Shown: positions 4,939-58,474, counted from the first letter of the stretch. The stretch is 64,000 nt of DNA from a bacterium (GCA_031411255.1 JANOAS010000367.1:10683-74682); one strand, 5' to 3'. The notes: a model not told the origin generated them from the letters alone. Numbers and translations are program-made.

Positions 4939-7776
4939 ATGATCTCCCATTTCCCTGCCATCCTTCGATCTCCAGCCCTGCGGGTGCTGGCTTTGTTTTT
5001 CCTGACCAGCTCGGCGCACTGGGCGGCTGCGGCGGAGGCTCAGATTTTCGAAGGAGAGGCGCTGAAAATATCAGCGCACGCTGGCAGCGCGCGTCCGCAG
5101 GATCTGAGGCCGTATGGCCAGGGGGCGTGGAGCGGGAATGCCCACCTCTGGTGGACGGACGCGAAGCCTGGCGACGTGCTGGAGCTGGCGCTGCCGGTGG
5201 CTGCGGACGGGGTCTGGCAAATCGGCGCGGGCTTCACCAAGGCCATCGACTACGGCATCTTCGACTTCACCCTGGACGGACAGAAGCTCGCGGGGCCGCT
5301 GGATTTCTACAACAACGGCGTGGTCCACACGGGCACGGTGGCGCTGGGTGGTGCGGTGAAGCTGACTGCCGGCGGGCACCGGCTGGAGGTGTGCGTGGCG
5401 GGGGCGAATGCGGCGGCGCTCAAGGGATACATGCTGGGGCTGGACTACGTCGTGCTGGTGCCGGAGGGCTCACCACTGGTCGGGCCAAAACTGCTCCCGT
5501 CGAAGCCGCCAAAGCCTGCCGCTGCTGCGGCAAAGGACGGGCTGAAAACGGGCAATGCCGAGGCGGCGGTGGCGAAGACGGCTGCGGAGCAGTTGAAGAC
5601 CTTCACTGTTCCCGAGGGCTTCACCATCGAGCTGGTGGCAAGCGAGGAAACCGGGCTGCCGAAACCGGCGATGGTCTCCTTTGACGATGCGGGCCGCCTG
5701 TGGTCCGTGACGGCCACCGAGTACCCGCGTGACAAGGAGCCCGGCATCTGGCAGCAGCAGGGGAGGGACCGCGTGGTGGTCATCGACGCGCCGCTCGGGC
5801 CCGGTCCGCACAAGGCGCGCACCTTTTCGGAGGGGATGGTCATGCCGCTGTCCGTGCTCCCGTTTGGAAAAGGGGCGTTCGTGGCCCAGGGGCCGGAGAT
5901 TCTTTTCCTGGAGGACAAGGACGGGGATGGAAAAGCTGACGAGCGCCGCGTGCTGGTGAAGGGATTTGGCGTGCAGGACACGCACACCCTGCCGCACCAG
6001 CTCACGCAGATGCCCGGCGGGCGCATCGTCTACTCCCAAGGCGTGCTGAACAGCGGAAAGATCACAGACGCCTCCGGCCGGGCCTTTGATTTCAACAAGA
6101 CGCTCGTCGCCTCCATGAAGCGGGACGGCACGGACACCCGCATCATCGGCGCGGGGCTGAACAACATCTGGGCCTGGGCGCACAGCCGCACCGGGCGCGT
6201 CTTTTTCCACGAAGCGAATGACTTCGGCTACAGCGTCATCCCCTTTGAGGAGGACACGTCGTATCCCAGCTTCATCGCGACGAAACTCCACCCCGGCTCC
6301 CCGCTCCACCCGCCCACGGCGGAGGGGCTGAACCTCGGCGGCACAGGCTTCTCGGGCATGGCCATCTGCGACGACCGGGCTGGATCCTACCCGGCGCCCT
6401 GGCAGGGGCTCATCTACGTGGCGAACCCCATCCTGGGAAAAATTCACGCCGTGAAGGCCGCACCCGGTGCGGAAGGCACGTGGGCTTTTTCAAAAGCGGG
6501 CGACCTCGTCTCGTGCGCGGATCCCATGTTTCGCCCGGTGGCCCTCACCTTTGGCCCGGATGGCTGCCTTTACATCACGGACTGGTACAACCGCATCATC
6601 TCCCACAACGAGGTGGCCCGCGACCACCCCGCCCGGGACAAGGAGCGCGGCCGGCTCTGGCGCGTGCGGCACACGGCCCAGCCTGGCCCGCATCCGCTCG
6701 ACATGACGAAGGCCGCCACCAGCGAGCTGCCCGCGCACCTGGCTGCGGACAGCACCTGGGAGGCGCGAGCTGCGTGGCACCAGATCGGCCAGCGCCAGGA
6801 CCGCGCCGTTGTGCCTGCGCTCACGGCGCTGCTCACGGGGAAATCTGCGGACCTCAGCACGCAGATCCACGCCCTCTGGGCGCTGGAGGACCTCGGTCAT
6901 TTCGACGCCGCCCTGTGGGCTGCGCTGCTGGCCAACCCGTCGGCTGACATGCGCCGCGAGGCCGTGCGGGCGCTTTCGTCGCTGCGCGTGCCTGAGGATG
7001 CCGCCTTTGCTTTGCTCCAGCCGCTGGCGGAGGAAAGGGAGTGGACCGTGCGCTACGAGGTGCTGCGCTTTTTCCGCCGCGCGGCGGGGCCGGTGAATCC
7101 AGCCCACACCGCGTGGCTGCGCCGCTGGTCCGCCAGCCCGGCTCCGCAGACCAAGGTGGACGGCTGGGGCGGTCCCTTCCTCGCGCTGGATGGTTCCTAC
7201 CAGCGGGCGTTTCAAGATTTCCTGATCGCGCGGGCGGAGACGAAATCCAGCGCCTCCCTTCTTGCCGAATCCCCGTGGGACAAGCCGCTCGCCACCGAGC
7301 CCGCGCCCACTGCGGAGAAGGCCGCGCAATCCACCGCCCGCCTCGCAGCTGTGAAGGCCGCCCTGGCCACTGCCCGGCCCGATGACGGAAAACCGCTGGT
7401 CGAGTCCATCTGCCTGACGTGCCACTCCATCGCCGGAAAAGGCGTCGGCTTTGCCCCGCCGCTCGATGGCTCCGCCAGCCGCGACCTGGACGGTCTGCTC
7501 ACCGCCATCGTCGCGCCCAACGCCGCCATGGAGGAGGTCTTCCGCCTCTACCGGGTGGAAAAGAAGGACGGCACTCTCGTCGAGGGTTTCAAGCGGAACG
7601 AGGATGCAAAAGAGCTGACCCTCCTCCTCATGGGCGGCGGAGCGGTGAAAGTCCCCATCCCCGAAATCGCCAAAGCAGGCTACATCCAGGGCCGATCCGT
7701 CATGCCCGACCTGACCGCCGCCATGACTGCCGAGCAGGTGGCGTCCATCGCCGCCTGGCTGCGGCTGGTTAAGTGA
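4939..7776 (+). CDS. PVC-type membrane-bound-dehydrogenase-domain / HEAT-repeat / c-type cytochrome protein
   Basis: GPDGCLYITDWYNRIISHNEV is a propeller signature. HEAT-like repeats are present (ALWALEDLGHFD, MRREAVRALSSL). The C-terminal heme site is CLTCHS (CxxCH). The architecture matches the Pirellula/Verrucomicrobium-type heme-binding proteins as I recall them. Confidence 0.8.
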   Translation: MISHFPAILRSPALRVLALFFLTSSAHWAAAAEAQIFEGEALKISAHAGSARPQDLRPYGQGAWSGNAHLWWTDAKPGDVLELALPVAADGVWQIGAGFTKAIDYGIFDFTLDGQKLAGPLDFYNNGVVHTGTVALGGAVKLTAGGHRLEVCVAGANAAALKGYMLGLDYVVLVPEGSPLVGPKLLPSKPPKPAAAAAKDGLKTGNAEAAVAKTAAEQLKTFTVPEGFTIELVASEETGLPKPAMVSFDDAGRLWSVTATEYPRDKEPGIWQQQGRDRVVVIDAPLGPGPHKARTFSEGMVMPLSVLPFGKGAFVAQGPEILFLEDKDGDGKADERRVLVKGFGVQDTHTLPHQLTQMPGGRIVYSQGVLNSGKITDASGRAFDFNKTLVASMKRDGTDTRIIGAGLNNIWAWAHSRTGRVFFHEANDFGYSVIPFEEDTSYPSFIATKLHPGSPLHPPTAEGLNLGGTGFSGMAICDDRAGSYPAPWQGLIYVANPILGKIHAVKAAPGAEGTWAFSKAGDLVSCADPMFRPVALTFGPDGCLYITDWYNRIISHNEVARDHPARDKERGRLWRVRHTAQPGPHPLDMTKAATSELPAHLAADSTWEARAAWHQIGQRQDRAVVPALTALLTGKSADLSTQIHALWALEDLGHFDAALWAALLANPSADMRREAVRALSSLRVPEDAAFALLQPLAEEREWTVRYEVLRFFRRAAGPVNPAHTAWLRRWSASPAPQTKVDGWGGPFLALDGSYQRAFQDFLIARAETKSSASLLAESPWDKPLATEPAPTAEKAAQSTARLAAVKAALATARPDDGKPLVESICLTCHSIAGKGVGFAPPLDGSASRDLDGLLTAIVAPNAAMEEVFRLYRVEKKDGTLVEGFKRNEDAKELTLLLMGGGAVKVPIPEIAKAGYIQGRSVMPDLTAAMTAEQVASIAAWLRLVK

Positions 7777-7784
7777 CGGGGCGG

Positions 7785-9878
7785 CTAGGGTGTCGCCTCC
7801 ACCGCGCCCATGTCGGGGATGCCGCTGACGGGCTGTCCCCGCTGGTCTATCGTGGCCATGGATCCGGTGGCGGCATTGACCGCCGGGCTGCCAGGCAGGG
7901 GCGGCAGGGTGGTGGTTGGACCGCCGTAGTTGCCCGGGGGGGAGAGCTTCGCGTCCAGCGGAGTGGCGGCGGAGCCTGCCAGGTTGCCGTCCACCGCATC
8001 CATGATGGTGGTTCCATCCGCCACGCCGATCAGGCTGCGCACAGCCGTCACCTTCCCCGCCTGCTGCCAGATGTCCGGGCCGTTCGCACTGGTGGTCGTG
8101 TTTTGGGCGACGACGCAGGCGTCGAGCGCCAGCGTGCCACCGGCTTCCAGGAACGAGAAGGCGCCGCCCCCGCTGGACCCGGCTGCGGTCCCGCTGGCCT
8201 TGTTTGCGGAGAAGGTGCAGTGGGTGGCCTTCACCGAGGCGTAGATGGCGGCAGCTCCGCCAGTCCGGCGTGCCTCGTTTCCGTAAAAGGTGCACCGCGT
8301 AAACTCCGCAGTGCCGCCTCCGATGATGACGGCGCCTCCGTGGTTGCCGATGTTTCCGGAAAAGGTGGTGTCCGTGGCGGTGAAGGTGCCCAGGCTGTTG
8401 ATCGCGCCTCCATTGGCCTTTGCCGAGTTGTTGGACACGGTGCACCGCACCAGACGCAGCGTGCCGTTGTTGCCTAGGGCGCCTCCGTTCACGGTCGCGT
8501 GGTTTTCGGCGATGAGGCAGTCGGTCAGGGTGAGGTCGGCGGAGTTCAGGATGATGCCTCCGTAGGAGTTTGTTCCGCCATTGAGCGTCAGGCCTTTCAG
8601 GCTCAGTGTGTATCCCGGCTGAAAATGGAGGCAGCAAGACTCCGTCCGGATGGTGAGGCCGCCGGGAAGTGGCGAGGCGTCCAGGGTGATGTGCGGGGCT
8701 TCCGCACCGGCTGCCGGCGCTGGTCGTTCAGGCAGCACGATCGAAGCCCCTCGCAAAGTAAGCGTCTGGCCGCTGAGAGCCGGCGAAAAGGTGATGGCTT
8801 GGGAGCCGGGAAGTGTGCTCACAGCGAGCAGCACCTGACGCAACGAGCCGGGGCCGTCATTCGCCGTGGTGGACACCAGAGTGGACGGAGGTCCGGAGGC
8901 GGCAGGTGCGGGGGCGGCTGCGGCTTCATCCCGCGGCCACCAGTGCCACGCGGCCGGCAGGACGGCAGAGCACGCCGCCGCTGTGAGGAGTGCCGTGCGG
9001 ACCCTCGTGCGACCAGGGGTGCGGGCTCGAGAGAGGGCGCGGCTCATTTCCGCAGTGCTCTGGTAGCGGGCGCCGGGGTCGGCCTGCATGGCTTTCCGAA
9101 TGACGGCATCGAACCGTGCATCCGTGCCGGCCGCTTCGCCCGGCAGAGCCCAGCGTCCGCGGGGCAGCTCACCCGTGAGCATCTGGTAAAGCACCACGCC
9201 CAGGGCGTAGACGTCTGCGCGGGCGTCCACGCTGGCACCGGGCTGGAGGACTTCCGGTGCTACAAATTCCGCCGTGCCGAGCGAGACATTTGACTGCGTG
9301 AGCCCGCGCGCGCTGGCGTCGTATTGTTTTGCCAGACCGAAGTCCGCCACCTTGGCGGCACCCGCGCTGGTGAGCAGAATGTTTGCGGGCTTGATGTCGC
9401 GGTGGACGATGCCCGCCCCGTGTGCGCAGGCGAGCGCGTCGCACACCTCGTTCAGGATCGCCGCCGCCCGGTCAGGCGGGAGCCGCCCGCCTTCGCGCAG
9501 GAGCCGCGCGAGGTCCGTGCCGTCGATGTATTCCATCACCATGTAGAGCAGCCCGCCATCCGTCCGGCCAAAACCAAAAACGCTGACGATGCCTGGATGG
9601 CTCAGTCCGGCCATGAGGCGGGCCTCTCTTTCAAAGCGCTCGACGCAGCCCGCGTCCTCGCGTTCCATGAGGGCGGCAGGCAGCACCTTCACAGCCACGG
9701 TGCGGCCCAGCGAGGTCTGCACGGCCTTGAAGACGGCGCCCATCCCGCCCCTTCCGGCGAGTTCCGTGAAAACGAAACCAGGCAGCGAGGCGTTCAGTTC
9801 GTCCAGCTCTGGCGCTTGCCAGGTTGCAGCGGTGGGGGGCATCTCGCGCAGCAAATGGCAGGGATTGGGGGAAGTCAA
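7785..9878 (-). CDS. transmembrane Ser/Thr protein kinase with Pmp-like beta-helix ectodomain (paralog 2)
   Basis: Kinase motifs: GRGGMGAVFKA, VAVKVL, HRDIKPANILL, DFGLA, APE. One TM helix (LLTAAACSAVLPAAWHWW). The ectodomain has GPGSLRQVL..ITF, then alternating GGA[IVA] and F[SY]xN tetrapeptides (NGGAINSLG, FSGN, HGGAVIIG, FYGN, TGGAAAIY, FSAN), ending IDQRGQP..DMGAVE. The listed start is a TTG overlapping the upstream stop (TTGA at 9875-9878). ATG at 9842 is an alternative start. Confidence 0.85.
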   Translation of the reverse strand: MTSPNPCHLLREMPPTAATWQAPELDELNASLPGFVFTELAGRGGMGAVFKAVQTSLGRTVAVKVLPAALMEREDAGCVERFEREARLMAGLSHPGIVSVFGFGRTDGGLLYMVMEYIDGTDLARLLREGGRLPPDRAAAILNEVCDALACAHGAGIVHRDIKPANILLTSAGAAKVADFGLAKQYDASARGLTQSNVSLGTAEFVAPEVLQPGASVDARADVYALGVVLYQMLTGELPRGRWALPGEAAGTDARFDAVIRKAMQADPGARYQSTAEMSRALSRARTPGRTRVRTALLTAAACSAVLPAAWHWWPRDEAAAAPAPAASGPPSTLVSTTANDGPGSLRQVLLAVSTLPGSQAITFSPALSGQTLTLRGASIVLPERPAPAAGAEAPHITLDASPLPGGLTIRTESCCLHFQPGYTLSLKGLTLNGGTNSYGGIILNSADLTLTDCLIAENHATVNGGALGNNGTLRLVRCTVSNNSAKANGGAINSLGTFTATDTTFSGNIGNHGGAVIIGGGTAEFTRCTFYGNEARRTGGAAAIYASVKATHCTFSANKASGTAAGSSGGGAFSFLEAGGTLALDACVVAQNTTTSANGPDIWQQAGKVTAVRSLIGVADGTTIMDAVDGNLAGSAATPLDAKLSPPGNYGGPTTTLPPLPGSPAVNAATGSMATIDQRGQPVSGIPDMGAVEATP

Positions 9879-11854
9879 TCCGCACCCGCATCAGCAGGAG
9901 CCTGCTTTGCGGGCAGGGGGGCTGCCGGAGTGCCGGTGGTGTTTTCCGGATCGCCCGCCTTCAGGGAGGAGTCCTTGTTGTTGCCAATGAAGCATCGGGA
10001 CGCCAGCAGCGTTCCTCCCCGGTTCCACAGGTCCGGCCCCAGCCCGGTGGCTGCGGTATTTTCCGCCACCAGGCACGCCTCCAGTGTCACCTGGGTGGTC
10101 TCGTCCAGGGCCAGGCCACCGGCGCCGTGGACGGGTGCCGCCAGGCCGGTGGTGGCGTTGTGAAGAATGGTGCAGCGGCGTGCGGTGAGCCGGCCCTGGA
10201 CCACGTCGACCGCCCCGCCCCTTGCAGCGGCTTCATTGTCTGAAAACGTGCAGCCGGTCATGGTCAGGCTGCCGTCCTCCTGGGCGATGGCGCCTCCGCT
10301 GCCTGCGGCCTTGTTCCCGCTGAAATGGCAGCGAGTGAGGGACATGCTGCCGAGGTTCTGGATGGCGCCGCCGTTGGCCCGGCACGCGTTCCCGGTGAAG
10401 CGGCAGTTCACGGCTTCCACCACGCCCGTGCCGAGGTTGTAGAGCGCCCCGCCGCCCCTGCTGGAGGTGTTGCCGGTGAGGGTGCAGTCCGTCAGACTGA
10501 GGTGGCCAAAATTATTGATGGCGATGCGGTCCTCCGTCCGGCAGCCGGTAATCGTGATGCCCTTGAGGGAGGCGGTGTCTCCTGGTGAAAAGAACAGCCC
10601 CTCAATGAGCTCGACCGTCACGCCGCCGGGGAGGCCGCTCGCGTCGATGTGGATCGGTCCTCCGGGATGCGGCTTGGTGTGGTCGGTCAGGGCGTTGATC
10701 CCCGCCAGTCTGAGCGCCGGGCTGGTGACCGTGATGGTTTTTCCGGCCAGCTCCGGGGCAAAGGTGATGGTGTCCGGCCCCGGGTTGGCATCGCAGTTAT
10801 CCATCGCCTCCCGCAGGGAGCCTGGCCCGGCATTCAGCGTGTTCGTCACCACGGTGGGCCGCCGCCCCGGCCTGGCCGGGGCCGCCGGGTTGAGGAGGTG
10901 GGCTCCCCATGCCAGCGCCGCCGCCGCCGCAGTCACCGCCACTGCAGTCATCAGGACTTTCCTCCTGCCCCCCGGCGCAGCGGCGGCCGGCTCCGGCGCA
11001 GGGCTGGACTGAATGGCGGCCAGGTCCGCGATGATCTCCTGGGCGGTGGCATAGCGTGCCGCACGGTCCGGCTGCATGGCCTTGTCCACCACGGCATCAA
11101 ACCGGGGATCCGTTCCCGCCACTTCGCTGGCCGGACTCCAGAGCCCGCGCGGCACCTGGCCGGTGAGCATCTGGTAAAAAACCACTCCCACGGCGAAGAG
11201 GTCCGCCCGCCCGTCCAGCACCGTGCCCGGCACCCAGGCCTCGGGTGCCAGGTAGTCCGGTGTGCCCACGGTCACATTGGACTTGGTCAGCCCCGGCCCG
11301 GCGGCGTCCTGGTGCCGGGCCAGCCCGAAGTCGGCTATCTTCACCCGGCCCTCCCGCGTCAGGAGAATGTTGGCCGGCTTGATGTCCCTGTGGGTGATGC
11401 CCGCGCGGTGCGCCGCCGCCAGCGCATCGCAGATCTGCATGACCAGGTCGACCGCCCGCTCCGGAGCCAGCCGCCCCGCTTCATGCAGCAGGCGCGAGAG
11501 GTCCGTCCCATCCACGTACTCCATGACGAAATAAAGCAGCCCGCCGGCGGTGCGACCGGAGTCATACACCCGCACGATCCCCGGGTGGTCCAGCCGCGCC
11601 ATCGTCCGCGATTCCAGCTCGAACCTTTCGGCAAAGAGCGCCTCCGGCTCCTCCATCAGTTCCGCCGGCAGCACCTTGACCGCCACCGCCCGCCCCAGCG
11701 AGAGATCCACCGCCTGGTAGACCGCTCCCATCCCGCCCCGCCCCAGCAGCCTTTCCAGGCGAAATCCCGGCAGCTCCTGCTGCAGCGTTTCCAGCGGCGG
11801 CGGCTGCGTCCATCTGCCCGGCGCGGTGGTGGGTATGGGCCGGGATTCGTTCAT
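9875..11854 (-). CDS. transmembrane Ser/Thr protein kinase with Pmp-like beta-helix ectodomain (paralog 1)
   Basis: Kinase motifs: GRGGMGAVYQA, VAVKVL, HRDIKPANILL, DFGLA, APE. One TM helix (VLMTAVAVTAAAAALAWGAHLL). The ectodomain has GPGSLREAM..ITF, then GGGALYNLG, FTGN, NGGAIQNLG, FSGN, SGGAIAQ, FSDN, RGGAVDV repeats. ATG start at 11852-11854. Confidence 0.9.
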   Translation of the reverse strand: MNESRPIPTTAPGRWTQPPPLETLQQELPGFRLERLLGRGGMGAVYQAVDLSLGRAVAVKVLPAELMEEPEALFAERFELESRTMARLDHPGIVRVYDSGRTAGGLLYFVMEYVDGTDLSRLLHEAGRLAPERAVDLVMQICDALAAAHRAGITHRDIKPANILLTREGRVKIADFGLARHQDAAGPGLTKSNVTVGTPDYLAPEAWVPGTVLDGRADLFAVGVVFYQMLTGQVPRGLWSPASEVAGTDPRFDAVVDKAMQPDRAARYATAQEIIADLAAIQSSPAPEPAAAAPGGRRKVLMTAVAVTAAAAALAWGAHLLNPAAPARPGRRPTVVTNTLNAGPGSLREAMDNCDANPGPDTITFAPELAGKTITVTSPALRLAGINALTDHTKPHPGGPIHIDASGLPGGVTVELIEGLFFSPGDTASLKGITITGCRTEDRIAINNFGHLSLTDCTLTGNTSSRGGGALYNLGTGVVEAVNCRFTGNACRANGGAIQNLGSMSLTRCHFSGNKAAGSGGAIAQEDGSLTMTGCTFSDNEAAARGGAVDVVQGRLTARRCTILHNATTGLAAPVHGAGGLALDETTQVTLEACLVAENTAATGLGPDLWNRGGTLLASRCFIGNNKDSSLKAGDPENTTGTPAAPLPAKQAPADAGAD

Positions 11855-11867
11855 CGCATTCCAGATT

Positions 11868-12629
11868 TTATGCCGCCAGCACGCTCTGGAGCCACGTCAT
11901 TTCACTTTCGATCTCCTCGGGCGTCTCCACCGTGCGTGAGATTTCCCTGCGCAGCTGGTCGCGGAATTTCGTGCGCAGCCGGAAGACCAGCAGCCGCACC
12001 GCAGTCTCGCTGGCGTTGAGTTTCGCCGCCACGTCACGGTAGGACGGCGGCTCCTCATCCCAGAGGAGAAAGGGCAGAAGCGTCTCGAAGACATCCCCCC
12101 GGCCGGACACTTCAAATTCACCGCGCAGCCGCAGCCGCACCCCGGCGATCAATTCCCCGGCCCAGGCCCGGGTGAAGAGGGCTTCCGGCGAGCGGTTGTC
12201 CACCGGCTCGCGGGCGTAGCGCTCCTCCGCAGACATCGCATCGAATGACAGCGGGCGCCGGCTGCCGCCGCGCTTCTCCGCCGCCTCGTACCGGCGTTCG
12301 TCGAAAAGGTGGTGCTTCAGCACCTGCAGGAGGAAGGTCCGCAGCTTGCCCTTCCCCCGCTCCGCCGCCTCGATGGATTCATCCGCCAGCATCTTCACGA
12401 AAAACCCCTGCGTCAGGTCCTCCGCGTCCTCGTGGTGGTGTCCCTGTCGGCGGAGAAAGGCGTAGATGGGATACCAGTAGAGCGCGCACAGTTCCTCCTG
12501 CGCCAGCCTGGCCTCGGGACCGCCCTGCCGCACCTTTGCTACCAGGGACCACCGCGTCGCCGGGAATGCCTGCGCCTGCCGGACCTCTGCGGAGGCGGCG
12601 TCATCTGGAGCGGCATGATTTGCGGGCAT
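11868..12629 (-). CDS. ECF-like sigma-70 family RNA polymerase sigma factor (kinase-associated type)
   Basis: Region 2 is DLTQGFFVKML. The region 4 HTH is SYRDVAAKLNASETAVRLLVFRLRTKFRDQL. An N-terminal TRWSLV motif is present. The stop lies 13 nt upstream of the kinase start. No anti-sigma-like ORF is adjacent. Confidence 0.85.
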   Translation of the reverse strand: MPANHAAPDDAASAEVRQAQAFPATRWSLVAKVRQGGPEARLAQEELCALYWYPIYAFLRRQGHHHEDAEDLTQGFFVKMLADESIEAAERGKGKLRTFLLQVLKHHLFDERRYEAAEKRGGSRRPLSFDAMSAEERYAREPVDNRSPEALFTRAWAGELIAGVRLRLRGEFEVSGRGDVFETLLPFLLWDEEPPSYRDVAAKLNASETAVRLLVFRLRTKFRDQLRREISRTVETPEEIESEMTWLQSVLAA

Positions 12630-12770
12630 GAGCGCAGAAAACCCGGCTTGCCGCCCATGGAAAGAAAAAAAAACGGAAAATCGTCTGAAACGCCGCGCCC
12701 GGAATTTCGAAATGGAAGGCCTGACGGGCTCTCACGGCCCGCACCAGTCCAACCAAACCACTGTCATTCC

Positions 12771-14882
12771 ATGAAAAAAATCCACATTCTCAGGGCCGCT
12801 GCCCTCCTCGCCCTGCTGGCCGGCGCACCGGCGGCCGGCGCCCAGACCCTGCCTCTCATCCCTTATCAGGGCCGCGTTCAGACCGGCGCGCCGCCGGCTG
12901 ACTTCACCGGCACCGGCCAGTTCAAGTTCGCCCTTGTGGCCGGCACGGCCAATGTCTCCGTCCCAGCCACTGCCAATGCCGTCCGCACGGGAAACGTGCT
13001 CACCAGAATCGACATTACCAATCAGGGCGATGGCTACATTTCCGCTCCCGCAGTGACCATCACCGGAGGCGGGGGCACCGGCGCTCAGGCCACTGCTGTC
13101 GTGACGGGGGGCAAGGTGACCTCCATTGGCGTCACCCAGGGGGGCGGGGGCTACACGTCGGACCCTCAGATCTCCATCGCCGCGCCTCCCGCCCGGCAGG
13201 AGTACCTCTGGGTGAATAATGGCGCCGTCACCGCAGACCCGGTGAATGCCGTCAGCGTCCCGGTGGCCGGCGGCCTTTATTCCGTCATGCTGGGGGACAC
13301 CACGACGGCTGGAGGAAACATGGCTGCCATCCCGGCTGCGGCATTCGCCCGTCCTGACGTGCGGTTGCGTGTCTGGTTTAACGGCACCCAGCTCGGGCAG
13401 GACCAGCGCCTCGCGCCTAATGGCTACACCACCGGCTCGGTGACAGGAACCCTCCCGGCCAACAATATCGGCACCTACCCTCCAGGCGTCCACATGGGCA
13501 GCCGTTTTCCGGGTTTTCCCAATGATGCCTCCGTCGCCGTCGTGGGCGCGGATACAGCTTCCATCACTTTTGCAGGCGGAGTTTCCAACGTCTGGAAGGA
13601 AATCCGCTACACCCGGGCCTCCGACTCGCTGAGCGTTCCCGCTGGCAATTTTGGCATCGGCACCACTGAGCCGGCAGCCAAACTTGATGTGAACGGAAAC
13701 ATCAACGCCAGTGGCGACCTTGGCTTTCCGGCAAACGGCCAGCACTTCATCTCCGTGGCCAGGCAGTCCGTACCCGATGTCGAGGGACGCTGGCTGACCG
13801 TTGAGGCGGGCAGCGCCCAGGGAGCATCCGGCACTGCCCGGGCCGGCGGCGGTCTCTACCTCAGGGCCGGCAACGGCTACAATGCGTCTGTGAACGGTGC
13901 CGGTGGCGGCGACGTCATCATTAGCTCCGGAGCAAACTGGATTAATGCAGGTGCCAGCGGCGACAACGGAGGCGACATCGTGTTCAATACCGGGGGAGCG
14001 AACAACACTTTCATGGAGCGCATGCGCATCGGTGAAAATGGCAACGTCGGTATCGGTACCACCGGCAACAACCCCGCCGGAGCGAAGCTGATCGTGAACG
14101 GTGGGGTGGATGGTTCCCCCGGCTTCGGTCCTTATATGAATACCACCGGAGGATCGTTCACTCCGATTGCTCACGGCTCCCACTCCATTTCCATCAAAGC
14201 CACCGGCACCATTCTCTCAGGCTCGGCCTTCGTCGCCGCCTCGGATGCCCGCATCAAAACCATCGCGGGACGCTCCGACAGCGGGACTGATCTCACCACT
14301 CTGCGCCGCATCGAAGTGACGGATTACGGCTACAAAGACACGGTCGCCCATGGTGGTGCGAAGCAAAAGAAAGTGATCGCCCAGCAGGTGGAGAAAGTCT
14401 TCCCCACCGCCGTGACGAAGATTACCAGCGTGGTGCCCGACATTTTCCAGAAGGCCACGATCAAGGATGGCTGGATCGAACTGACCACCGACCTCAAGAA
14501 GGGCGAGCGCGTCCGCCTCCTCAGCGAGAAGGAAGAAGCCATCCATGAAGTGCTGGAGGTGCGTGCTGGAGGATTCCGCACAGCGTACAAGCCTGCGGAC
14601 GGCAAGATCTTCGTCTATGGCCGCGAGGTGAATGACTTCTGCACCGTGGACTACGAGGCCATTGCCATGCTCAACGTCTCCGCCACCCAGGAACTCGCCC
14701 GGAAGCTGGAGGCGAAGGACTCCGAAGTCCTCGCGCTGAAAACAGAGAACGCCGCCCTGAAAGCTGAACTCGCGGCCAACGCCGCCGGGGACAAGGCGCG
14801 GGATGCGAAGCTGGCCGAACTCGCCGCCTTGATCGCGAAGCAGCCCACCACCACCGTCGCCACAGTGGTGGCTCCACGTTAA
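12771..14882 (+). CDS. Sec-exported tail-fibre-like protein with C-terminal S74-type intramolecular chaperone domain and coiled coil
   Basis: ATG 12771 gives the signal peptide MKKIHILRAAALLALLAGAPAAGAQ. GDGYISAPAVTITGGGGTGAQATA / GGGGYTSDPQISI fibre-type repeats are present, as are NFGIGTTEPAAKLDVNGN and GNVGIGTTGNNP motifs. SDARIKTIAGRS (from nt 14241) followed by ...VIAQQVEKVFP matches the endosialidase/tail-fibre chaperone domain. The terminal coiled coil is ELARKLEAKDSEVLALKTENAALKAEL. The listed ORF start at 12309 is antisense to the sigma gene. Confidence 0.8.
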   Translation: MKKIHILRAAALLALLAGAPAAGAQTLPLIPYQGRVQTGAPPADFTGTGQFKFALVAGTANVSVPATANAVRTGNVLTRIDITNQGDGYISAPAVTITGGGGTGAQATAVVTGGKVTSIGVTQGGGGYTSDPQISIAAPPARQEYLWVNNGAVTADPVNAVSVPVAGGLYSVMLGDTTTAGGNMAAIPAAAFARPDVRLRVWFNGTQLGQDQRLAPNGYTTGSVTGTLPANNIGTYPPGVHMGSRFPGFPNDASVAVVGADTASITFAGGVSNVWKEIRYTRASDSLSVPAGNFGIGTTEPAAKLDVNGNINASGDLGFPANGQHFISVARQSVPDVEGRWLTVEAGSAQGASGTARAGGGLYLRAGNGYNASVNGAGGGDVIISSGANWINAGASGDNGGDIVFNTGGANNTFMERMRIGENGNVGIGTTGNNPAGAKLIVNGGVDGSPGFGPYMNTTGGSFTPIAHGSHSISIKATGTILSGSAFVAASDARIKTIAGRSDSGTDLTTLRRIEVTDYGYKDTVAHGGAKQKKVIAQQVEKVFPTAVTKITSVVPDIFQKATIKDGWIELTTDLKKGERVRLLSEKEEAIHEVLEVRAGGFRTAYKPADGKIFVYGREVNDFCTVDYEAIAMLNVSATQELARKLEAKDSEVLALKTENAALKAELAANAAGDKARDAKLAELAALIAKQPTTTVATVVAPR

Positions 14883-14912
14883 TCCCCGCCTGACGATCAC
14901 TCATTCACTCCC

Positions 14913-15548
14913 ATGAAGACAAAACTGATCTTGTACACGGCTGTGGGGGCCCTCCTCTGGCAGTCGGCTGCGGAGGCCGGCAGCCGCTCCGGCGGCACGG
15001 GCACCGGGGCCGTCACCATCCCGGCGGACACCCTCAGCAGCGGTGGCGGCACAGCCACCGGCGGCAGCGGCGCCACGGCGGTGGTCGTATTTTCCAGCCT
15101 CGGCGGTGTCGTCGGCACCGTGAAGGCGGCGTCTGGATCCCCTGTCGTGAAGCAGGGGTTCGTCCCGCAGATCCTGCCGGCCACCCTCAGCGGGTTCGAC
15201 CTCTGGGCCAGCCAGAACATCCCCGCCGGGAAGGACGCGGCCTTCGCCGGCGACGGAAACGGTGATGGCATCCCGAACGGCGTGGCCTACGTCTTCGGCA
15301 CCACGCGCGTCAGCCCTACAGGGAAAGGGAAAATCCCCATCCCTCCGGCCATCCCGGCGGATGTGGACGTCTACCTGGACCGCAGCATCGACCTGACGAC
15401 TTGGCTTCTCGCCCGGGTCAGCTGGGTGAACGGAGCCGCGCCCACCTTCGTCAATGGCAACTTCTCCATCGTCGCAGGTGAAGTGGTGGACACAGCCAAC
15501 CCCCCGGGTGGCGACTTGTTCTACCGGTATCGGGTCGTTCGGCGCTGA
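14913..15548 (+). CDS. small secreted protein carrying the shared C-terminal module (GDGNGDGIPNGVAYVFG ... LFYRYRVVRR)
   Basis: Signal peptide MKTKLILYTAVGALLWQSAAEA. It has a Gly/Thr-rich N-terminal half, a DxDxDGIPN calcium-site-like motif and a terminal F-Y-R-Y-R-V motif. It starts 30 nt after the fibre gene and is followed by a strong terminator. Confidence 0.7.
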   Translation: MKTKLILYTAVGALLWQSAAEAGSRSGGTGTGAVTIPADTLSSGGGTATGGSGATAVVVFSSLGGVVGTVKAASGSPVVKQGFVPQILPATLSGFDLWASQNIPAGKDAAFAGDGNGDGIPNGVAYVFGTTRVSPTGKGKIPIPPAIPADVDVYLDRSIDLTTWLLARVSWVNGAAPTFVNGNFSIVAGEVVDTANPPGGDLFYRYRVVRR

Positions 15549-15569
15549 GGAGCGCCGCCCCGCAGCCAG

Positions 15570-15600
15570 GGACGGCCGGTGACCCACCGGCCGTCCTTTT
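15570..15600 (+). terminator. Rho-independent terminator of the fibre operon
   Basis: A perfect 12-bp stem GGACGGCCGGTG / CACCGGCCGTCC with loop ACC, followed by TTTT. It starts 22 nt after the stop at 15548. Confidence 0.8.
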
Positions 15601-15709
15601 GCGGGAGCAGCAGTTGTAGCGCAGCAGAGGCTTTTCCTCCGTCCCCCCGCCGCCCACCACCACACAAGGTGGGGCGAGGCTCCTGCCGAGCCGCATCGCC
15701 CCAAGCCCC

Positions 15710-15993
15710 GCGCCCCGAACTTCGTGCCCCGTCGACCCTCCAGCCGCGTGCACCAAGCCTCCGTTCCCCTTCGTGCAGACAAGGTGCGGCGAATCGGCTG
15801 AAGCCTGCACTATTGACATTCTGAGCATTCCGGATGCCTGCTGCCCCTGCGCAAAACGAAGGGGCGGCACGTCAAGAGTCCAGCCTTCAGGCGACCCGTG
15901 CGCGAGGTGCCCGTGCCTGGTGCACGCCGGCCGCAGCGAGCTGCGAGCCAAACAGCGGCGGCGAGCTTCCGCACTCCACGACGGCTCCGCCGC
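15710..15993. repeat. dispersed intergenic repeat elements X (15710-15742) and Y (15933-15993), copies also at 25176-25209 (X), 24856-24872 (partial X) and 25108-25168 (Y, inverted)
   Basis: Hand alignment. Y at 15933-15993 versus the reverse complement of 25108-25168 gives 46/61 identical, ungapped. X is gcgccccgaacttcgtgccccgtcgaccctcca versus gcgccccaagcttcgtgccctgtcgagccctcaa (about 29/33 with one indel, same orientation). Confidence 0.7.
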
Positions 15994-16256
15994 TTCGCTT
16001 CTCCTCGTCACCCAGTCTTCCAGTCTCCCGGCCTCCCGGCCTCCCGGCCAGAGCCCGGTCTCGTCTTTTGACTAAATGGTCCCCCTCAATTCCCCTAGGA
16101 TTCTTGTGGGGCATCTGCCGATGTTTGAGTATTTCGGTGACGGTTCCTGGAAAAATACGTAGAACGGAGGGAGCGAATCAAACCCGCCCAACCCGAAAGA
16201 GTCGCCCCTGCGGCCCTCCTGTTTCAGCTTTCAAGCCCAAGATCAGCCCCAGTAAC

Positions 16257-19200
16257 ATGAAAAACAGTCCATCCTCCTGCGTTCCCGCATCTTTGACATC
16301 CGCTTCGTCCCTGCTTCTGCAGCTGTGGTTGCTGACGGTGTCTCTGGTCCTGCTGCCTGCAGGCTCCGCACTGCGGGCGCAGACGCCGATCCATGCCTAC
16401 GAGTTCAACGGCACCATGGCCGACACCTACGGCGGGCCGGCGATGTCGGGCGGGACTTTCCCGGGGCAGACGACGTACACGTTCGGCATCGGCCAGGGGC
16501 CGGGGGTGCAGGGGGCCATCCCGGCGAATGCGGATTACTCGCTGGAGATGCTGTTCTACTTCAGCTCCATGCCAGGGACCTATGCCTCGCTGGTCAACTT
16601 CAGCAACCTGACCTCGGATGGGGGCCTCTACCTGTGGAACAGGGCGCCCTACTTCGCCCCGAATGGCGGCTCGCCGACGTCGCCGGTCGTACCACTGGTC
16701 ACCTACTCCCGGATGGTCATCACGCGGAGCTTTTCCACCCAGGTCACCAAAATCTACCTGGATGGAAACCTGGCGGCGACGCGCACGGACACGGCCAACA
16801 CCTACCTCTCGCCCTCGGGCTGGCTCCACTTCTTCCGGGATGACGGCTCGGAAAACGCCCCTGGCGTGGTGGATGCCATCCGCATGTACGACACGGTGCT
16901 GTCGGACTCGCAGATCGCCGCCATGGGTGTAGGTGCGACGGCGTTGCCGGAGATCAGCCTCTTCCGCGGCACGACATCGGGCACGGAGCTGTTCTCCTCG
17001 TCGAGCACATCGGACCTCGGCAGCATCACGCTGGGGAACTCCAGCGCGGCGCAGACCTTCACCATCTGGAACACGGGCAAAAAGGACCTGATCCTGGGGA
17101 CGCTGAGCAAGGTGACAAACAATGCAAGCTACCCGAACTACGCGGACTTCACGCTCGGCACGCCGGCCAAGTCGGTGCTGGCTCCGGGGGAATCGACGAC
17201 GTTCACCGTGACCTTCACGCCCTCTGCCACGGGCGCGCGGCTGGCGCAGGTGAACATCCCGAACAATGACCAAGATGAGTCAACTTTCGTTACCAACCTG
17301 AGCGGCACGGGCACGGCGCCGGTGCCGCTTTCGCCCTCGCGGTTCTGGACGTTCAACGGGACCTTCAATGATTCGCTCGGCGGCACGCCGATGGGGCCGT
17401 ACAATGCCAACGGCACGAACAACCAAAGCCCGAACCTCTCGGCGACCTACTACAGCTGGGATCCCGGCCAGAACCTCGACACCAGCAGTGTGCTGAGCAA
17501 CTACAACGAATGGACGATGGAGCTGGTCTTCAAGCTGGCCAAAGTGACGGGCTACAACGCGCTGGTGAACTTCGACAGTCTGGCCGGGGACAACGCGGTT
17601 TTTGTGCAGGACGGGAAACTGAGCTTCTACGGCATCAGCAGCGGCGCGGTTTCGGCCAGTGGGCTTTTCTCGGCCGACACGTGGTACCGGCTGATCGTCA
17701 CGCGACGGGCCTCCGACGGGCAGATGAAGGGCTATGTGGACGGCACCGAGGTGCTGAGCGCCACTGCGGGCAGCGGGCAGCTGGCCGGGCAGGCGCCGCA
17801 AGGCAGGCTCAAGTTCTTCGGCGATGCCTCCGGGGAGGTCTCAGGCGGCTCGGTGGACCTGATCCGCATCTACTACGGCGTTATGCCCTCCACTCAGGCC
17901 ACGGCACTGGGTTCGGGCCGGGTGCCGGACATCAGGGTGACGCTCGGCACCTCCTCCGGACCTGAGATCGTGAACGGCTCGCTGCTGGACTACGGCTACG
18001 TGCAGGTGGGTGCCGGAAATCAAAAGCTGATCACCATTGCCAATCTCGGTACGGGAAATCTGACCGTTCAGTACCCCGGTTTATCCGGTGCGAATTCATT
18101 CCAGTTTGCCATCGCCGGCAATCCAGCCGGCACGATCCCGCCGCTATCCACTGCCTCGTTCAATCTCAATTTTTTCCCAACCTCCGTGGGCACGAAGAAC
18201 GCCTACATGCAGCTCGGCAACAGTGACGCGAATGACAATCCCTACGCTATCAATCTGACTGGAGTGGCTGTGTGGCTGCCTACGGTCACGGCGGTCTCCC
18301 CAGCGAGTGGACTGGTGGCTGGGGGCACCCCGGTGACGATCACGGGCACAGACTTCATGCCGGGAGTGACGAGCGTGACGATCGGCGGTGTGGCCGCGAC
18401 GGCTGTCTCCGTGCAGACCTCGACACTCCTTACCTGCACGACGCCGGCGGGCACGAGCGGAGCGAAAAGTGTGGTGGTGACGACGCCTGGCGGCGTGAGC
18501 AATACAGGGATTAATTTCACCTACAACGGAGTGCCGACCGTGGTCTCAGCCTCGCCATCAGCGGGGGCGCTGGCAGGAGGCAACACAGTGACCCTGACGG
18601 GCACGGACTTCCTCGCGGGAGCCACGGTGACGATCGGTGGGAATGCCGCCTCGAATGTGAATGTGGTGAACGCCACGACTCTGACGTGCACGGCTCCGGC
18701 CGGCACGGCGGGGGCGAAGAGTGTGATCGTAACGACAGCCGGCGGATCAAGTGCGGCGAACTCACTCTATACGTACGCCGGCGCGCCGACGTTGACGAAC
18801 GTGTCTCCCGGCAGCGGACCGCTCGGCGGTGGAAACACAGTGACGCTCACGGGCACTGGATTCCTGCCCGGAACGGCGGTTGCGATTGGCGGGGGCCAGG
18901 CCTCGGCGGTCACTGTGACGAGCCTCACGAGCCTGACGTGCACCGCCCCGGCGGGAGCCGCAGGGGTGGCGAATGTGAGTGTAACCACTGCGGCTGGAAG
19001 CAGTGCCGGCGGCATCACCTACACGTACGTTGCGGCACCCACGGTGACGAATGTCACGCCGAACTCCGGCCCGGTGGCTGGCGGCACGAGCCTGACCCTC
19101 GCGGGCACCGCCTTCATCCCGGGAGCCACCACGGTGACCATCGGCGGCAGTGCAGCAACGGCGGTAAATGTGGCAAGTGCCACAAGTCTCACGTGTATCG

Positions 19201-22200
19201 CCCCAGCGGGCACTGCGGGGGCGAAGAGTGTGATCGTGACGACGGCTGGTGGCTCAAATCCGGCGAATACGCTTTTTACCTACTACGTTCCGGCGCCTGA
19301 AATCGCTGTGACGGGCCTCGGCGTGGACATCACGGATGGCGATGCAACCCCAGCCGCCACAGACGGCACGAGTTTCGCCTCCACGGGCGTGGTCGGACCT
19401 GCGACGCGGAATACTTTCACCATCACCAACAGTGCAACGGCCACGAGCTCGCTCACGCTGGGCACGGCGACGGTCACAGGCGATTTCATGATCACGCAGC
19501 CCCTCGCCACGACGCTGGCACCCGGGGCGAGTACGACGTTCACGGTGGACTTCGATCCCACCACGACCGGGACACGAACGGGCACGGTGAGCATCCCGAA
19601 CAACGACTCGAACGAGAATCCTTTCGATTTCAGCGTCAGTGGCGTCGGCACGGCGCCGGAGATCTCCGTCACGGGTGCCGGGGTGGACCTCGCCGATGGC
19701 GACACAACGCCGGCGGTGACTGATGGGACGGACTTTGGCTCCGTCATGGCCAACAGCGCCTCGAAGGTCACACGTTTCACCATCACCAACAGTGCGGCGG
19801 CGACGACGAGCCTGACTCTCGGCCCGGTGACGGTGACGGGGGCTGGCTTCACCACCACGCAACCCGTACCGGCCGGGGCGGTGCCCATTGGCGGCTCTGT
19901 CACCTTCGATGTCTCCTTCACTCCCACGACCACCGGCCCGCGCACGGCCACGGTCAGCTTCAGCACGAATGACATCGACGAGAATCCCTTCAACTATTCC
20001 ATCCAGGGCACAGGCATGGTGCTGCCGACAATCACGACGCCGACGAGTGCCTCCATCACGACCGTGGGAGCGGTGCTGGGTGGCAACGTCACGTCGGACG
20101 GCGGTTCGCCCCTCCTGTCCCGCGGGGTTCTTTATTCTGCGACAGCGACCAATGCGGATCCGACCACTGGAGGAACGGGAGTGACGACGGTCACGCTGGG
20201 CTCCACCACAGGCGTCTTTACCATACCGGTCAGCGGTCTGACACCCGGCACAGCCTACAGCTTCAAAGCGTATGTAGACACCGCCGCAGGCGTGGTCTAT
20301 ACCAGCGTGGCTACCTTTACTACGGGCACCACGCCGCCCGCTCTCACCATCCAGGCCTCGACAAATGTGCAGGCCAGCAGCGCCACAGTCAACGGCACCG
20401 TGACGAGCGAAGGCACTGCCGCAGTCACCGAGCGTGGTTTCGTCTATGCCCCCACGAGCGTCACCACGACGCCTGCCATTGGCGGCCCGGGCGTGGTCAA
20501 GCTCATCAAGGTCGGCTCTTTGGGCTCCTTTACTGCGGCTCTTACGGGCCTGAGCGTTTCCACAGCCTACAACGTCCGCGCCTACGCCACCAGCAGTGCG
20601 GGCACGAGCTACAGCCCGGTGGGCGGCCTCACCACCGTGACACCAATTCCCCTGACCGTCGTGGCCAACAATGCCACCCGCACGTTTGGGGCGGCCAATC
20701 CTGCATTCACCGGCACGGTCACCGGCTTGGTCGCGGGGGACGGCATCACCGTCACCTACGGCACGCCGGCGGGAGCCACGAGCAGTCCCGGCACCTACGC
20801 CATCGCCCCGGTCCTCGCCGATCCGCTCGGCCGCCTCGGGAAGTACGCGCTCGCCCGGACGGACGGTGTGCTGACCATCACTGCGGCCCAAACGACGACC
20901 GTGGCGGCTGCGGCGACGGTGCAGGTCAGCGCCTCGGCGCAACCTGTCGCGTTGAGCGCCGCCGTGACCTCCGGAGGTGCGGCGGTTGCGGCCGGGAGCG
21001 TTTCCTTCCAGGTGAAAAACGGCGCCGCAAACGTCGGCAGCGCCGTCGTCGCGTCCGTGGATGCCGCAGGTCTGGCCTCCGCCAGCTACACGCTGCCCGC
21101 CGGGCTGGCGGGCGGCAGCTACAGCATCATTGCCACCTTCGCGGCCACGACGAATTACCGGGCCAGCACCTCCGCCGCCGCCGTGCTCACCGTGGTGCCG
21201 CCGCCTCCGGTCAGTTCGTTTGTGGTCGAGGGCGTGGTCAGCCCAGTCACGGCGGGAGTTCCGTCCACGACGCTGACGGTTGAGGCCCGGAACGCTGCGG
21301 GCGGCGTTTACACGGGGTATCGCGGCACGATCCGCTTCACCAGCACCGATGCCTCCGCCGTGCTGCCTGCGGCGTACACATTCACCGCAGCGGATGCCGG
21401 TCTCCACACCTTCAGCGTCACGCTGCGCACCGCTGGCGAGCAGGGCATCACAGCGACGGATGCGGCCGCGGTCGTCAGCGGATCGCAGACGGGCATTTTC
21501 GTGGACCCGACGACGGGCGACAAGCGCCTCCTCGGCTGGGGCGCCAATGCCAGCGGCCAGCTCGGCGATGGCACGACGAATGACGCTCTCACCCCCGCCG
21601 CGCTCCCGCCCTTCGTGCCCGGGCCTGCTGGAGCCTTCGGCACTGGTCCCTCGGTGGCGGCCGGAGCCACGCACAGCGTGGGCTTGCTGGCCAATGGCCG
21701 CGTCTATGCCTGGGGCAGCAACACGAAAGGGGAACTCGGCAACATGACGACCACGGCCAGCCCCCTCGCTGTGCCTGTCCGGTGGTTCACCGGGGATATC
21801 TTGAGCAGTGCCGTGGCGGTGGCGGCAGGGGAGAAATTCAGCCTCGCGCTCCTGCCGGACAACAGCGTGTGGGCTTGGGGCGATGTGCCCGGCCTCGGCT
21901 TGACCGCGCCGTGGACCTACGCCCGCCCGGTGCCCGGGCTCAGCAGCGTGGCCGCCATTTCTGCCGGAGGCCGCTTCGCCATGGTGCTGAAACACGACGG
22001 CACCGTCTGGACCTGGGGCGAGAACGCCAGCGGCGTGATCGGCAACGGTACGCTGGCCGCCACGGTGGCGCCGGTTCAGGTGGCCGGGCTCACGGGGATC
22101 TCCAGCATCTCGGCAGGAGCTGCCTTTGCTGTGGCAGTGGAAAGGACCACGGGCAGCGTCTGGACGTGGGGTGCCAATGACCGCGGCCAGCTCGGACGGA

Positions 22201-28393: not shown

Positions 28394-28638
28394 GGAATGG
28401 GCAGGGTTTTGCGGTGGGGTGGCCGTCCTTTCAAACAGAGGAGGATGCCGAAAGCAGGGACGCACTGCAGCCCCCAGGCACCCGCCTCCGAATAAATCGG
28501 GCGCGGTTCAATTTGTGATTGTGAGGGAAATCGGACAATTGTCGAGAAAATTTCGCAATTACGAGTGCTAATTCTCGGACTTTTCCTGCCCGGGTGCCCC
28601 TGCAAAAATCCACCTGACCGGGTGAAAGGTGCTGCGAT

Positions 28639-58375: not shown

Positions 58376-58391
58376 GTCCCGGTTTTCCGAC

Positions 58392-58418
58392 AGGAGGCGG
58401 GAGCCTCCTTCCTTTTAT
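58392..58418 (+). terminator. Rho-independent terminator after the FG-GAP gene (in the corrected frame)
   Basis: AGGAGGC-GGGA-GCCTCCT followed by TCCTTTTATT, 17 nt after the TAG at 58373-58375. Its position supports 58375 as the true gene end rather than 58701. Confidence 0.65.
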
Positions 58419-58474
58419 TAACATAGACGTTCCCATTCTGCAACCTGCCAAATTTTTAACCGCAATTTCTTTTT

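Follow-up and report, generated by a model that had tools for sequence, protein, structure and literature searches.

A two-gene operon of Verrucomicrobiales, at positions 12771–15600 of a 64,000-nucleotide (nt) stretch of bacterial DNA (GCA_031411255.1, JANOAS010000367.1:10683-74682; the whole stretch is called the window), is read here, with a probability of roughly 0.6, as making a cell-encoded, phage-fibre-like extracellular appendage of the mosaic adhesive trimer (MAT) type. The first gene, A, very probably encodes a cellular, exported trimeric fibre chaperoned by an S74 domain, as judged from its sequence and those of its homologues, and the second, B, a small partner that is predicted to be secreted. 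With a G+C content of about 65%, the window encodes proteins that match metagenome-assembled genomes of Verrucomicrobiales. The features of the operon are as follows (aa, amino acids; bp, base pairs; ORF, open reading frame).

12771–14882, plus strand: gene A, stop codon included, a predicted 703-aa exported fibre precursor (ORF, Pfam, homologues, model).
12771–12842, plus strand: Sec signal peptide, aa 1–24, predicted cleavage AGA↓QT (sequence features and homologue conservation).
12843–13418, plus strand: N-terminal beta-rich domain, aa 25–216, the 'PYQGRV ... DVRLRVWF' module (model, conservation).
12954–13196, plus strand: double 'G.GY.S.P.V.I.GGGG' repeat of phage-structural-protein type, aa 62–142 (PHROG, BFVD, viral contig L015, insertion or deletion among orthologues).
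13419–14240, plus strand: fibre region, presumed trimeric beta-helix, aa 217–490 (family profile against MAT crystal sequences; MyRF loop alignment).
14241–14879, plus strand: S74 or intramolecular chaperone auto-processing (ICA) domain, aa 491–703 (Pfam, Foldseek, profile matches).
14913–15548, plus strand: gene B, a predicted 211-aa secreted partner (ORF, synteny, alignment, model).
15570–15600, plus strand: intrinsic terminator with a perfect, G+C-rich 12-bp stem, a 3-nt loop and TTTT (fold z-score −5.3).

The C-terminal part of A (aa 491–703) is a genuine S74 domain by sequence, profile and fold. Pfam PF13884 matches aa 491–548 over model positions 1–57 of 58 (E = 1.4e-6; 28.9 bits, with a gathering cut-off of 22 bits), and Foldseek aligns this part of A with the ICA domain of MyRF (7dc3; E = 4e-6, probability 1.0, template modelling (TM) score 0.69–0.73) and with the endosialidase chaperone (3gw6; E = 3e-4). 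A profile built on the A family matches the phage long tail fibre 6f45 (2e-10), MyRF 7dc3 (2e-8) and the GA-1 neck appendage 3gud; the profile was required to reach the MAT and phage entries, a single-sequence search of the PDB with A giving only a weak match to MyRF. The motif SDARIK at aa 491–496 (14241–14258) places Ser491 (14241–14243) and Lys496 (14256–14258) in S-D-x-x-x-K spacing; in alignments its counterparts are SDRRIK in 6f45 and the corresponding position in MyRF. VIAQQVEKVFP stands at aa 535–545. An initial annotation of the window had picked out this same block and assigned it to Peptidase_S74, as the searches bear out. A homology search with A gave 461 homologues, the best 120 of which were examined: about 70 of these carry SD.R.K, with 130–237 residues after the Ser, and in the family alignment Ser, Asp and Lys dominate their columns (of 116 sequences, 85 have the Ser and 70 the Lys). 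The domain contains an inserted small beta-barrel (aa 548–626; 14412–14648) that MyRF lacks, and it ends in one 63-residue helix (aa 628–690), a candidate for the heptad coiled coil of the initial annotation, with a predicted local distance difference test score (pLDDT) above 90 in the AlphaFold2 model. Its neighbours in BFVD are S74 proteins of phages and algal giant viruses.

The domain varies in size within the family, about six homologues of A having a short form (130–145 aa after the Ser) as against the long form (190–237 aa). In its fold, the inserted barrel of A weakly resembles the barrel at the N-terminus of V/F-ATPase A/B subunits.

At its other end, A has the layout of a Sec substrate. 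The 703-aa ORF of the initial annotation was recovered at 12771–14882, and its MKKIHIL start is supported by the homologues, which begin at the same place; an alternative in-frame GTG upstream, at 12309, overlaps the sigma-factor gene described below. The signal peptide proposed there also stands as a prediction, with an n-region (MKKIHILR), an h-region (AAALLALLAGAPAA) and cleavage at AGA↓Q, and this n/h/AxA-Q layout is common to nearly all of the Met-starting sequences among the 120 best homologues. Nearly every full-length homologue in that set continues from its signal peptide into '(V/T)P.L..YQGR(V/I)', and (Y/H)QG falls within residues 16–60 in 89 of 112 homologues with an initial Met. 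The YQGR module so defined is about 110 aa long, with 22 invariant positions in a sample of 21 sequences, and the AlphaFold2 monomer model of A (116 homologues) exceeds a pLDDT of 90 at aa 30–215 as well as at aa 490–690. The N-terminal domain (aa 25–216) has no match in Pfam, the PDB or PHROG, and NCBIfam matched no family to either A or B. The YQGR module is not confined to S74 proteins; it also heads S74-less FGE-sulfatase-like, BNR/sortilin, Kelch and RCC1 proteins of Verrucomicrobia and Lentisphaerae. Several sources already list such proteins as 'tail fiber domain-containing protein', and a literature search found nothing on verrucomicrobial S74 proteins.

Between these two domains lies a Gly/Asn-rich region (aa 217–490) that resembles the stalks of known trimeric fibres. 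It contains capping-loop motifs, GNFGIGTTEPAAKL from 13644 and GNVGIGTTGNNPAGAKL from 14040, with GNFGIGTT at aa 292–299 and GNVGIGTT at aa 424–431, so that the loops read GN(F/V)GIGTT...P..AKL; the first of them aligns with RVGINTDRPDEAL of MyRF. These two GN(F/V)GIGTT sites, together with two G.GY.S.P.(V/I).I repeats nearer the N-terminus (aa 86–97 and 125–136), account for the fibre-type repeats that had been reported for A.

The best structural match to A is the ICA domain (7DC3; TM 0.7) of MyRF, a eukaryotic transcription factor of the endoplasmic-reticulum membrane that yields a DNA-binding fragment when cleaved. A and MyRF share the capping-loop motif just ahead of the cleavage site. 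The nearest fold solved to date is thus that of a protein in which autoproteolysis sets a transcription factor free, and S74 cleavage in A might likewise serve as a release switch, with A tethered by its C-terminus and an N-terminal signal or effector being let go. This we regard as hardly credible, because A ends in AKQPTTTVATVVAPR with no hydrophobic span after the S74 domain, has neither the membrane span nor the DNA-binding domain of MyRF nor any other effector domain, and is predicted to be exported.

The reading of A as an exported fibre has a closer precedent among bacteria. Bdellovibrio bacteriovorus has 21 MAT proteins (Caulton et al. 2024; PMC10769870). In all 21, a signal peptide is accompanied by a conserved N-terminal domain, rich in beta-strands and about 130 aa long, that has no PDB homologue; 13 of the 21 end in an S74 domain with SDxxxK, Bd3182 cleaves itself at S782 and is blocked by S782A, and the fibres are trimeric, surface exposed and adhesive, with a capping-loop motif shared with MyRF. 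The A family profile matches the sequences of MAT crystal structures (Bd2133, 8ond, 5e-8; 8oml, 3e-6; Bd3182, 8ojn, 1e-3; also 8ol4 and 8on4), and a 144-aa Bd2133 fragment, rebuilt from the profile alignment and used as a query, gave one match at 40% identity. The S74 subgroup of MATs, such as Bd3182, has in common with A a chromosomal, non-phage gene, a signal peptide with a beta-rich domain directly after it, a stalk with V/F-G-I/N-G-x-x-x-P-x-x-x-L capping loops and a C-terminal SDxxxK S74 domain; for A, the beta-helical stalk with this consensus was recognized by profile. The N-terminal domains are analogous, both following the signal peptide, being rich in beta-strands and lacking a PDB relative.

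There are also differences. The host of A belongs to Verrucomicrobiales, with no known predatory lifestyle, unlike Bdellovibrio, and A carries a phage-type GGGG insertion in its N-terminal domain and an extra barrel of about 60–80 aa in its chaperone. A is also much shorter, at 703 aa as against 627–1959 aa for MAT proteins as a whole and 760–1660 aa for the S74-bearing ones. The locus of A further has a dedicated partner, B, and a sigma/kinase neighbourhood, neither of which we met in the portions of the MAT description consulted. With the Bdellovibrio precedent, exported S74 fibres of cellular origin form a kind already established, and A fits the MAT architecture; by its sequence A would be a variant of the MAT-type fibre in the PVC (Planctomycetes–Verrucomicrobia–Chlamydiae) phyla and not categorically new. 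What is new here is the PVC-type N-terminal module, the regulatory neighbourhood and the partner B. The proposal in the initial annotation of a host-encoded, exported trimeric fibre or adhesin is supported, having a direct experimental precedent in the MATs, and none of the three refuting conditions named there was borne out as far as they could be checked (the S74 match, phage genes in the window or in flanks of homologues, the signal peptide), although the novelty that it implied for a cellular S74 fibre was overstated, such fibres having already been described (PMC10769870).

Phage S74 proteins resemble A in other respects. Their chaperone domains (endosialidase K1F, 3GW6; T5 pb1, 4UW8; MEROPS S74) share the Pfam family, Ser–Lys spacing and fold of A, and a triple beta-helix is expected before the chaperone. 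A might accordingly be a leftover or domesticated tail fibre of a phage, a tailocin or an extracellular contractile injection system (eCIS), assembled in the cytoplasm onto a particle encoded elsewhere. PHROG matches to A, which fall in two places only, are to tail-fibre families on aa 313–668 and to the GGGG repeat, where a virion-protein-type match spans aa 57–171; many viral S74 proteins are among the structural neighbours of A; and eCIS fibres can carry S74 domains. This reading is nevertheless already largely refuted, and we hold it to be very improbable. Unlike phage S74 proteins, A is encoded by a non-phage gene of host-like composition, keeps a predicted Sec signal peptide across its family and has a cellular N-terminal module in place of a virion-attachment domain, and it stands in synteny with cellular regulators in several genomes. 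Likely genes in the window were picked by third-position G+C, and a Pfam scan of about 38 of them across the 64 kb found cellular families only, with no capsid, terminase, portal, integrase or baseplate gene, in agreement with the initial annotation. The window has no tRNA gene by tRNA scan, and the 10-kb flanks of homologues in other genomes (L009, L012 and L013) contain no phage genes, so that no cluster of phage or tail-like genes surrounds an A-type gene, either in the 64 kb or in those flanks. Among 2.9 million viral contigs, A had no close relative apart from the 80-aa GGGG repeat module, B had none, and the N-terminal module, itself without a PHROG match, had a relative in one contig only. 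A prophage remnant was ruled out by the Pfam, tRNA and viral-contig scans together with the synteny comparison. A scan of genome contigs found a single relative, which is frameshifted.

The cellular families in the window comprise MMPL, PQQ-propeller, thioredoxin and cytochrome-c proteins, two Hanks kinases and two sigma factors of the extracytoplasmic function (ECF) type, giant proteins with Laminin_G, FG-GAP/NHL and IPT/RCC1 domains, a glycosyltransferase/Wzy cluster and assorted enzymes. The one viral contig with a relative of the N-terminal module (L016; IMG/VR, 6.9 kb) has portal-, protease- and capsid-like ORFs by eye, followed by a signal-peptide protein at 5246–6598 in which the YQGR module is joined, again by eye, to an FGE-sulfatase-like C-terminal sequence; this contig represents either the edge of a prophage or a copy of the module that a phage carries.

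The GGGG repeat of A has phage relatives. Its two units, GDGYISAPAVTI at aa 86–97 and GGGYTSDPQISI at aa 125–136, belong to an insertion inside the N-terminal module that some orthologues lack. PHROG families 701, 460 and 708 match it; in BFVD its neighbours are cyanophage structural proteins, with the match to cyanophage P-TIM40 reaching 41% identity at a root mean square deviation of 0.9; and a further relative lies at 8001–8363 of the viral contig L015 (181 kb), identity to the repeats of L015 and to those of the P-TIM40 structural proteins being 39–41%. Present or absent among close orthologues, the double repeat is a mobile module.

Gene B starts 30 nt after gene A. It corresponds to the 211-aa secreted protein of the initial annotation and has a predicted signal peptide of its own (aa 1–22), a Gly/Ser-rich segment and a C-terminal beta-sandwich (aa 88–211; 15174–15545) ending in FYRYRVVRR; the model is confident only for aa 125–211 of this sandwich. 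Its 41 close homologues are 127–347 aa long, mostly about 200–216 aa. In all eight loci that have sequence upstream of B (the window, L001, L002, L003, L008, L009/10, L011 and L014), B follows an S74 gene, with one Exo_endo_phos gene in between in L009/L010 and immediate adjacency elsewhere; in L011 and L014, the stop of the S74 gene and the start of B overlap by 4 nt. The S74 proteins concerned include the short-chaperone form (L009) and an RCC1-propeller/S74 protein (L011). Relatives thus keep both the signal peptide of A and the pairing with the small gene. The operon is closed by the perfect 12-bp terminator previously noted, in which GGACGGCCGGTG and CACCGGCCGTCC enclose the loop acc and TTTTG comes next; none of 200 shuffles folds equally well. 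A consensus terminator scanner missed this hairpin (15570–15600), its T tail being only four long.

The C-terminal domain of B is the most interesting lead at the locus. An exhaustive profile search with B gave 131 cluster representatives, and the region equivalent to aa 88–211 lies 14 or fewer residues from the C-terminus in at least 36 proteins longer than 250 aa. Proteins of Cadherin-like, PPC, PKD/Ig, beta-propeller, Laminin_G and He_PIG type (among P0168–P0214) end in this domain, as does a secretin, P0195, which P0198 and P0211 seem to resemble. Its signature reads W..NIP.G.D..F.GD.NGDG..NG..YVFG ... FYRYRV.R, and it was found in none of the 120 examined homologues of A. Like the C-terminal domain type of the type IX secretion system of Bacteroidota, aa 88–211 of B form a beta-sandwich of about 120 aa that in many unrelated, large extracellular proteins stands only at the extreme C-terminus; they differ from known sorting domains in having no sequence or fold match to them and in occurring also on secretins and as a stand-alone protein. 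We conjecture from this distribution that verrucomicrobial proteins have here a C-terminal domain for sorting or anchoring, so far undescribed. If it does sort or anchor, it would explain the attachment of a large class of verrucomicrobial surface proteins.

Gene arrangements around the S74 genes vary further. RCC1-propeller proteins with a YQGR module and a short S74 domain occur at L011 53–2418 and L012 20629–22457, each preceded by a conserved 191–200-aa protein whose stop overlaps their start; in L011 a B homologue comes next. In Prosthecobacter-like loci (L004 5265–10166; L012 7480–12457), B is absent and the S74 fibre is the third of a conserved gene set, after a 272–289-aa protein (DxDxDG motifs, FYRLTVR C-terminus) and a 549–581-aa protein.

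The recurrence of B also bears on whether A is anchored at all. A could be a released, soluble, tailspike-like protein that binds or degrades glycans, in polysaccharide foraging or biofilm remodelling, with the S74 domain merely ensuring trimer folding and B a separate secreted or surface protein co-expressed by chance. S74 chaperones are classical for endosialidases and lyase tailspikes, the YQGR module also heads the FGE-sulfatase-like, BNR/sortilin, Kelch and RCC1 proteins that resemble secreted enzymes or binders, and mature A would be short, about 466 aa against about 1000 aa for MATs. We nonetheless consider a soluble protein unlikely: Pfam and NCBIfam recognize no catalytic domain in aa 217–490, which align with the beta-helix stalks of MATs and not with enzyme cores, and B goes with S74 genes in 8 of 8 loci, as functional partners would.

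Divergent from the fibre operon lies a set of regulatory genes, with the following features.

7785–9878, minus strand: Hanks-type Ser/Thr kinase 2, 697 aa, with Chlam_PMP repeats in its C-terminal part (Pfam Pkinase, E = 2.9e-48).
9875–11854, minus strand: Hanks-type Ser/Thr kinase 1, 659 aa (Pfam Pkinase, E = 8e-47; Beta_helix, 2e-12; Chlam_PMP).
11868–12629, minus strand: divergent ECF-type sigma factor, 253 aa (Pfam Sigma70_r2, E = 6e-6; weak Sigma70_ECF).
12630–12770, no strand: divergent intergenic region, 141 bp (sequence; one block conserved with L001).
12687–12712, plus strand: candidate ECF-type promoter, GAAACG, 15 nt, CGAAA (motif recurrence).

The two kinases are tandem paralogues, 46% identical, whose genes overlap by 4 nt. 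Kinase 1 consists of a kinase domain, one hydrophobic span (VLMTAVAVTAAAAALAWGAHLL) and a right-handed beta-helix/PMP ectodomain; both kinases have Chlamydia-PMP repeats after the membrane span, the Beta_helix match being confined to kinase 1. The sigma factor, with which TIGR02937 aligns over its full length below cut-off, is 80% identical to the sigma factor of L001 and 51% to that of L004, both of which adjoin an S74 operon. A homologous kinase, usually with a sigma factor, lies beside the fibre operon in six independent loci (the window, L001, L002, L004/5, L009/10 and L014) and in three different gene orders: L001 has the gene order of the window with a ParE toxin/antitoxin pair inserted between sigma factor and kinase; in L004/L005 (Prosthecobacter) sigma factor and kinase are divergent from the fibre operon; in L009/L010 sigma factor, kinase, S74 gene, Exo_endo_phos gene and B follow one another on one strand; and in L002 and L014 the kinase is directly upstream of the fibre operon.

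The 141 bp between the divergent genes, which the initial annotation had described as a shared promoter region, contain GAAACG-N15-CG on the coding strand at 12687. Here as in L001, L004/5/6 and L014, the motif precedes the operon's first gene by 50–112 nt (positions 5325 in L001, 5213 in L004, 732 in L006 and 1478 in L014), and it is the sole match in each of L001, L004 and L014; a longer form, GAAAC-N16-CGNAA, occurs twice in the 64-kb window against 0.55 expected. An 'AAC' in the −35 element is typical of ECF promoters, and the sequence at 12687–12712 is a candidate for one. In the window (12687–12713) the motif overlaps ATTTCGAAAT, which is a perfect palindrome, and has an A-rich run, GAAAGAAAAAAAAACGGAAAA, just upstream of it. 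A sigma-70 promoter scan gave 0 sites, and Rfam gave 0 matches on 11800–16400 of the window. Because kinase adjacency recurs in six loci and a promoter-like motif is shared, the fibre operon is tied to the sigma/kinase genes more firmly than had been claimed, and on these patterns a kinase–sigma–fibre circuit controlling A/B expression is the most likely reading.

Circuits of this kind have been reported: ECF43-type sigma factors are activated by paired Hanks kinases (EcfK/PknS and EcfP/PknT; PMC13147305). The window likewise has an ECF-type sigma gene beside transmembrane Hanks kinases with a large ectodomain, and its likely target operon is adjacent. Region 2.2 of ECF43 is uncharged and contains a conserved phospho-acceptor Thr (PMC13147305), whereas the sigma factor of the window keeps HEDAEDLTQGFF (DAEDLTQG); at 253 aa it is also longer than the ECF43 type, and it falls below the NCBIfam ECF cut-offs. 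The adjacent Hanks-type kinase genes of the ECF43 pairing are present; an assignment to ECF43 itself was rejected, the acidic DxxD of region 2.2 not having been lost.

In the favoured course of events, A would be exported by Sec with the loss of its 24-residue signal peptide. In the periplasm, the S74/ICA domain would bring three chains into register and, judging from homology to endosialidase, T5 pb1, MyRF and Bd3182, template the Gly/Asn-rich region into an intertwined triple beta-helix. The Ser491–Lys496 dyad would then cut A490↓S491, as its residues and fold lead one to expect, freeing the 213-residue chaperone and exposing the fibre tip. The mature protein of about 466 residues would hold its N-terminal beta domain proximal to the cell, as proposed for MATs, and its tip would serve as an adhesin or glycan binder. 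B, probably co-translated to judge from the 4-nt overlaps in two relatives, might be an envelope-associated accessory of the fibre and possibly its anchor; this is the weakest step, suggested by B being essentially the C-terminal domain that elsewhere caps secretins and large surface proteins. The conserved neighbourhood and GAAACG-N15-CG suggest that the divergent ECF-type sigma factor probably drives expression of A and B; it would be controlled by the membrane Ser/Thr kinases encoded next to it, their beta-helix/PMP ectodomains serving to sense some external cue.

Several observations weigh against parts of this account. The AlphaFold2 monomer model of A has a pLDDT below 50 at aa 220–480, as is expected if the region folds only as an intertwined trimer. 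No sigma factor or kinase lies beside the more distant homologues in L012 and L013, the GAAACG-N15-CG motif was found post hoc, and the sigma factor, with its acidic DAED in region 2.2, is without the ECF43 phospho-switch signature, for which reason the circuit is claimed only as the most likely reading. B has no match in Pfam, NCBIfam or among PDB folds, so that its role is argued from neighbourhood and domain occurrence; N-domain proteins without S74 are also without the B-type C-terminal domain, and its supply in trans is therefore not obviously required.

A bolder synthesis, speculative and in our estimate improbable, would join all of these elements: the ECF sigma factor, the Ser/Thr kinases with their ectodomains, the S74 fibre and B would form a signal-inducible surface-fibre module of PVC bacteria, and the C-terminal domain of B would define an unrecognized envelope-targeting or anchoring domain of Verrucomicrobia, shared by secretins and dozens of giant surface proteins and supplied in trans where S74 self-cleavage sacrifices the C-terminus. 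The surface biology of Verrucomicrobia, which abound in soil, water and gut, has hardly been explored. The phage-derived S74 fibre design, a proven adhesin in Bdellovibrio, is also found in PVC bacteria with no known predatory lifestyle, and the locus offers a defined predicted cleavage site, A490↓S491, a co-inherited small partner and a candidate kinase–sigma–promoter circuit.

Giant secreted proteins are unusually many in the window. Directly downstream of the terminator, at 16257–24704, a 2815-aa secreted protein carries four IPT/TIG domains together with HYDIN-like Ig, MBG and RCC1 repeats. Homology between its C-terminus and B was considered and rejected: DSDNDGIPNLLEYAFG of the giant protein resembles GDGNGDGIPNGVAYVFG of B over 20 residues only, a DxDGDGIPN motif, with an hhalign probability of 26%. 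In Prosthecobacter-type loci, too, a giant protein follows the S74 gene; it is unrelated and about 2600 aa long. Elsewhere in the window, a Laminin_G_3 protein is encoded at 25379–28465, and two very large FG-GAP/NHL/SBBP repeat proteins occupy 54073–64000.

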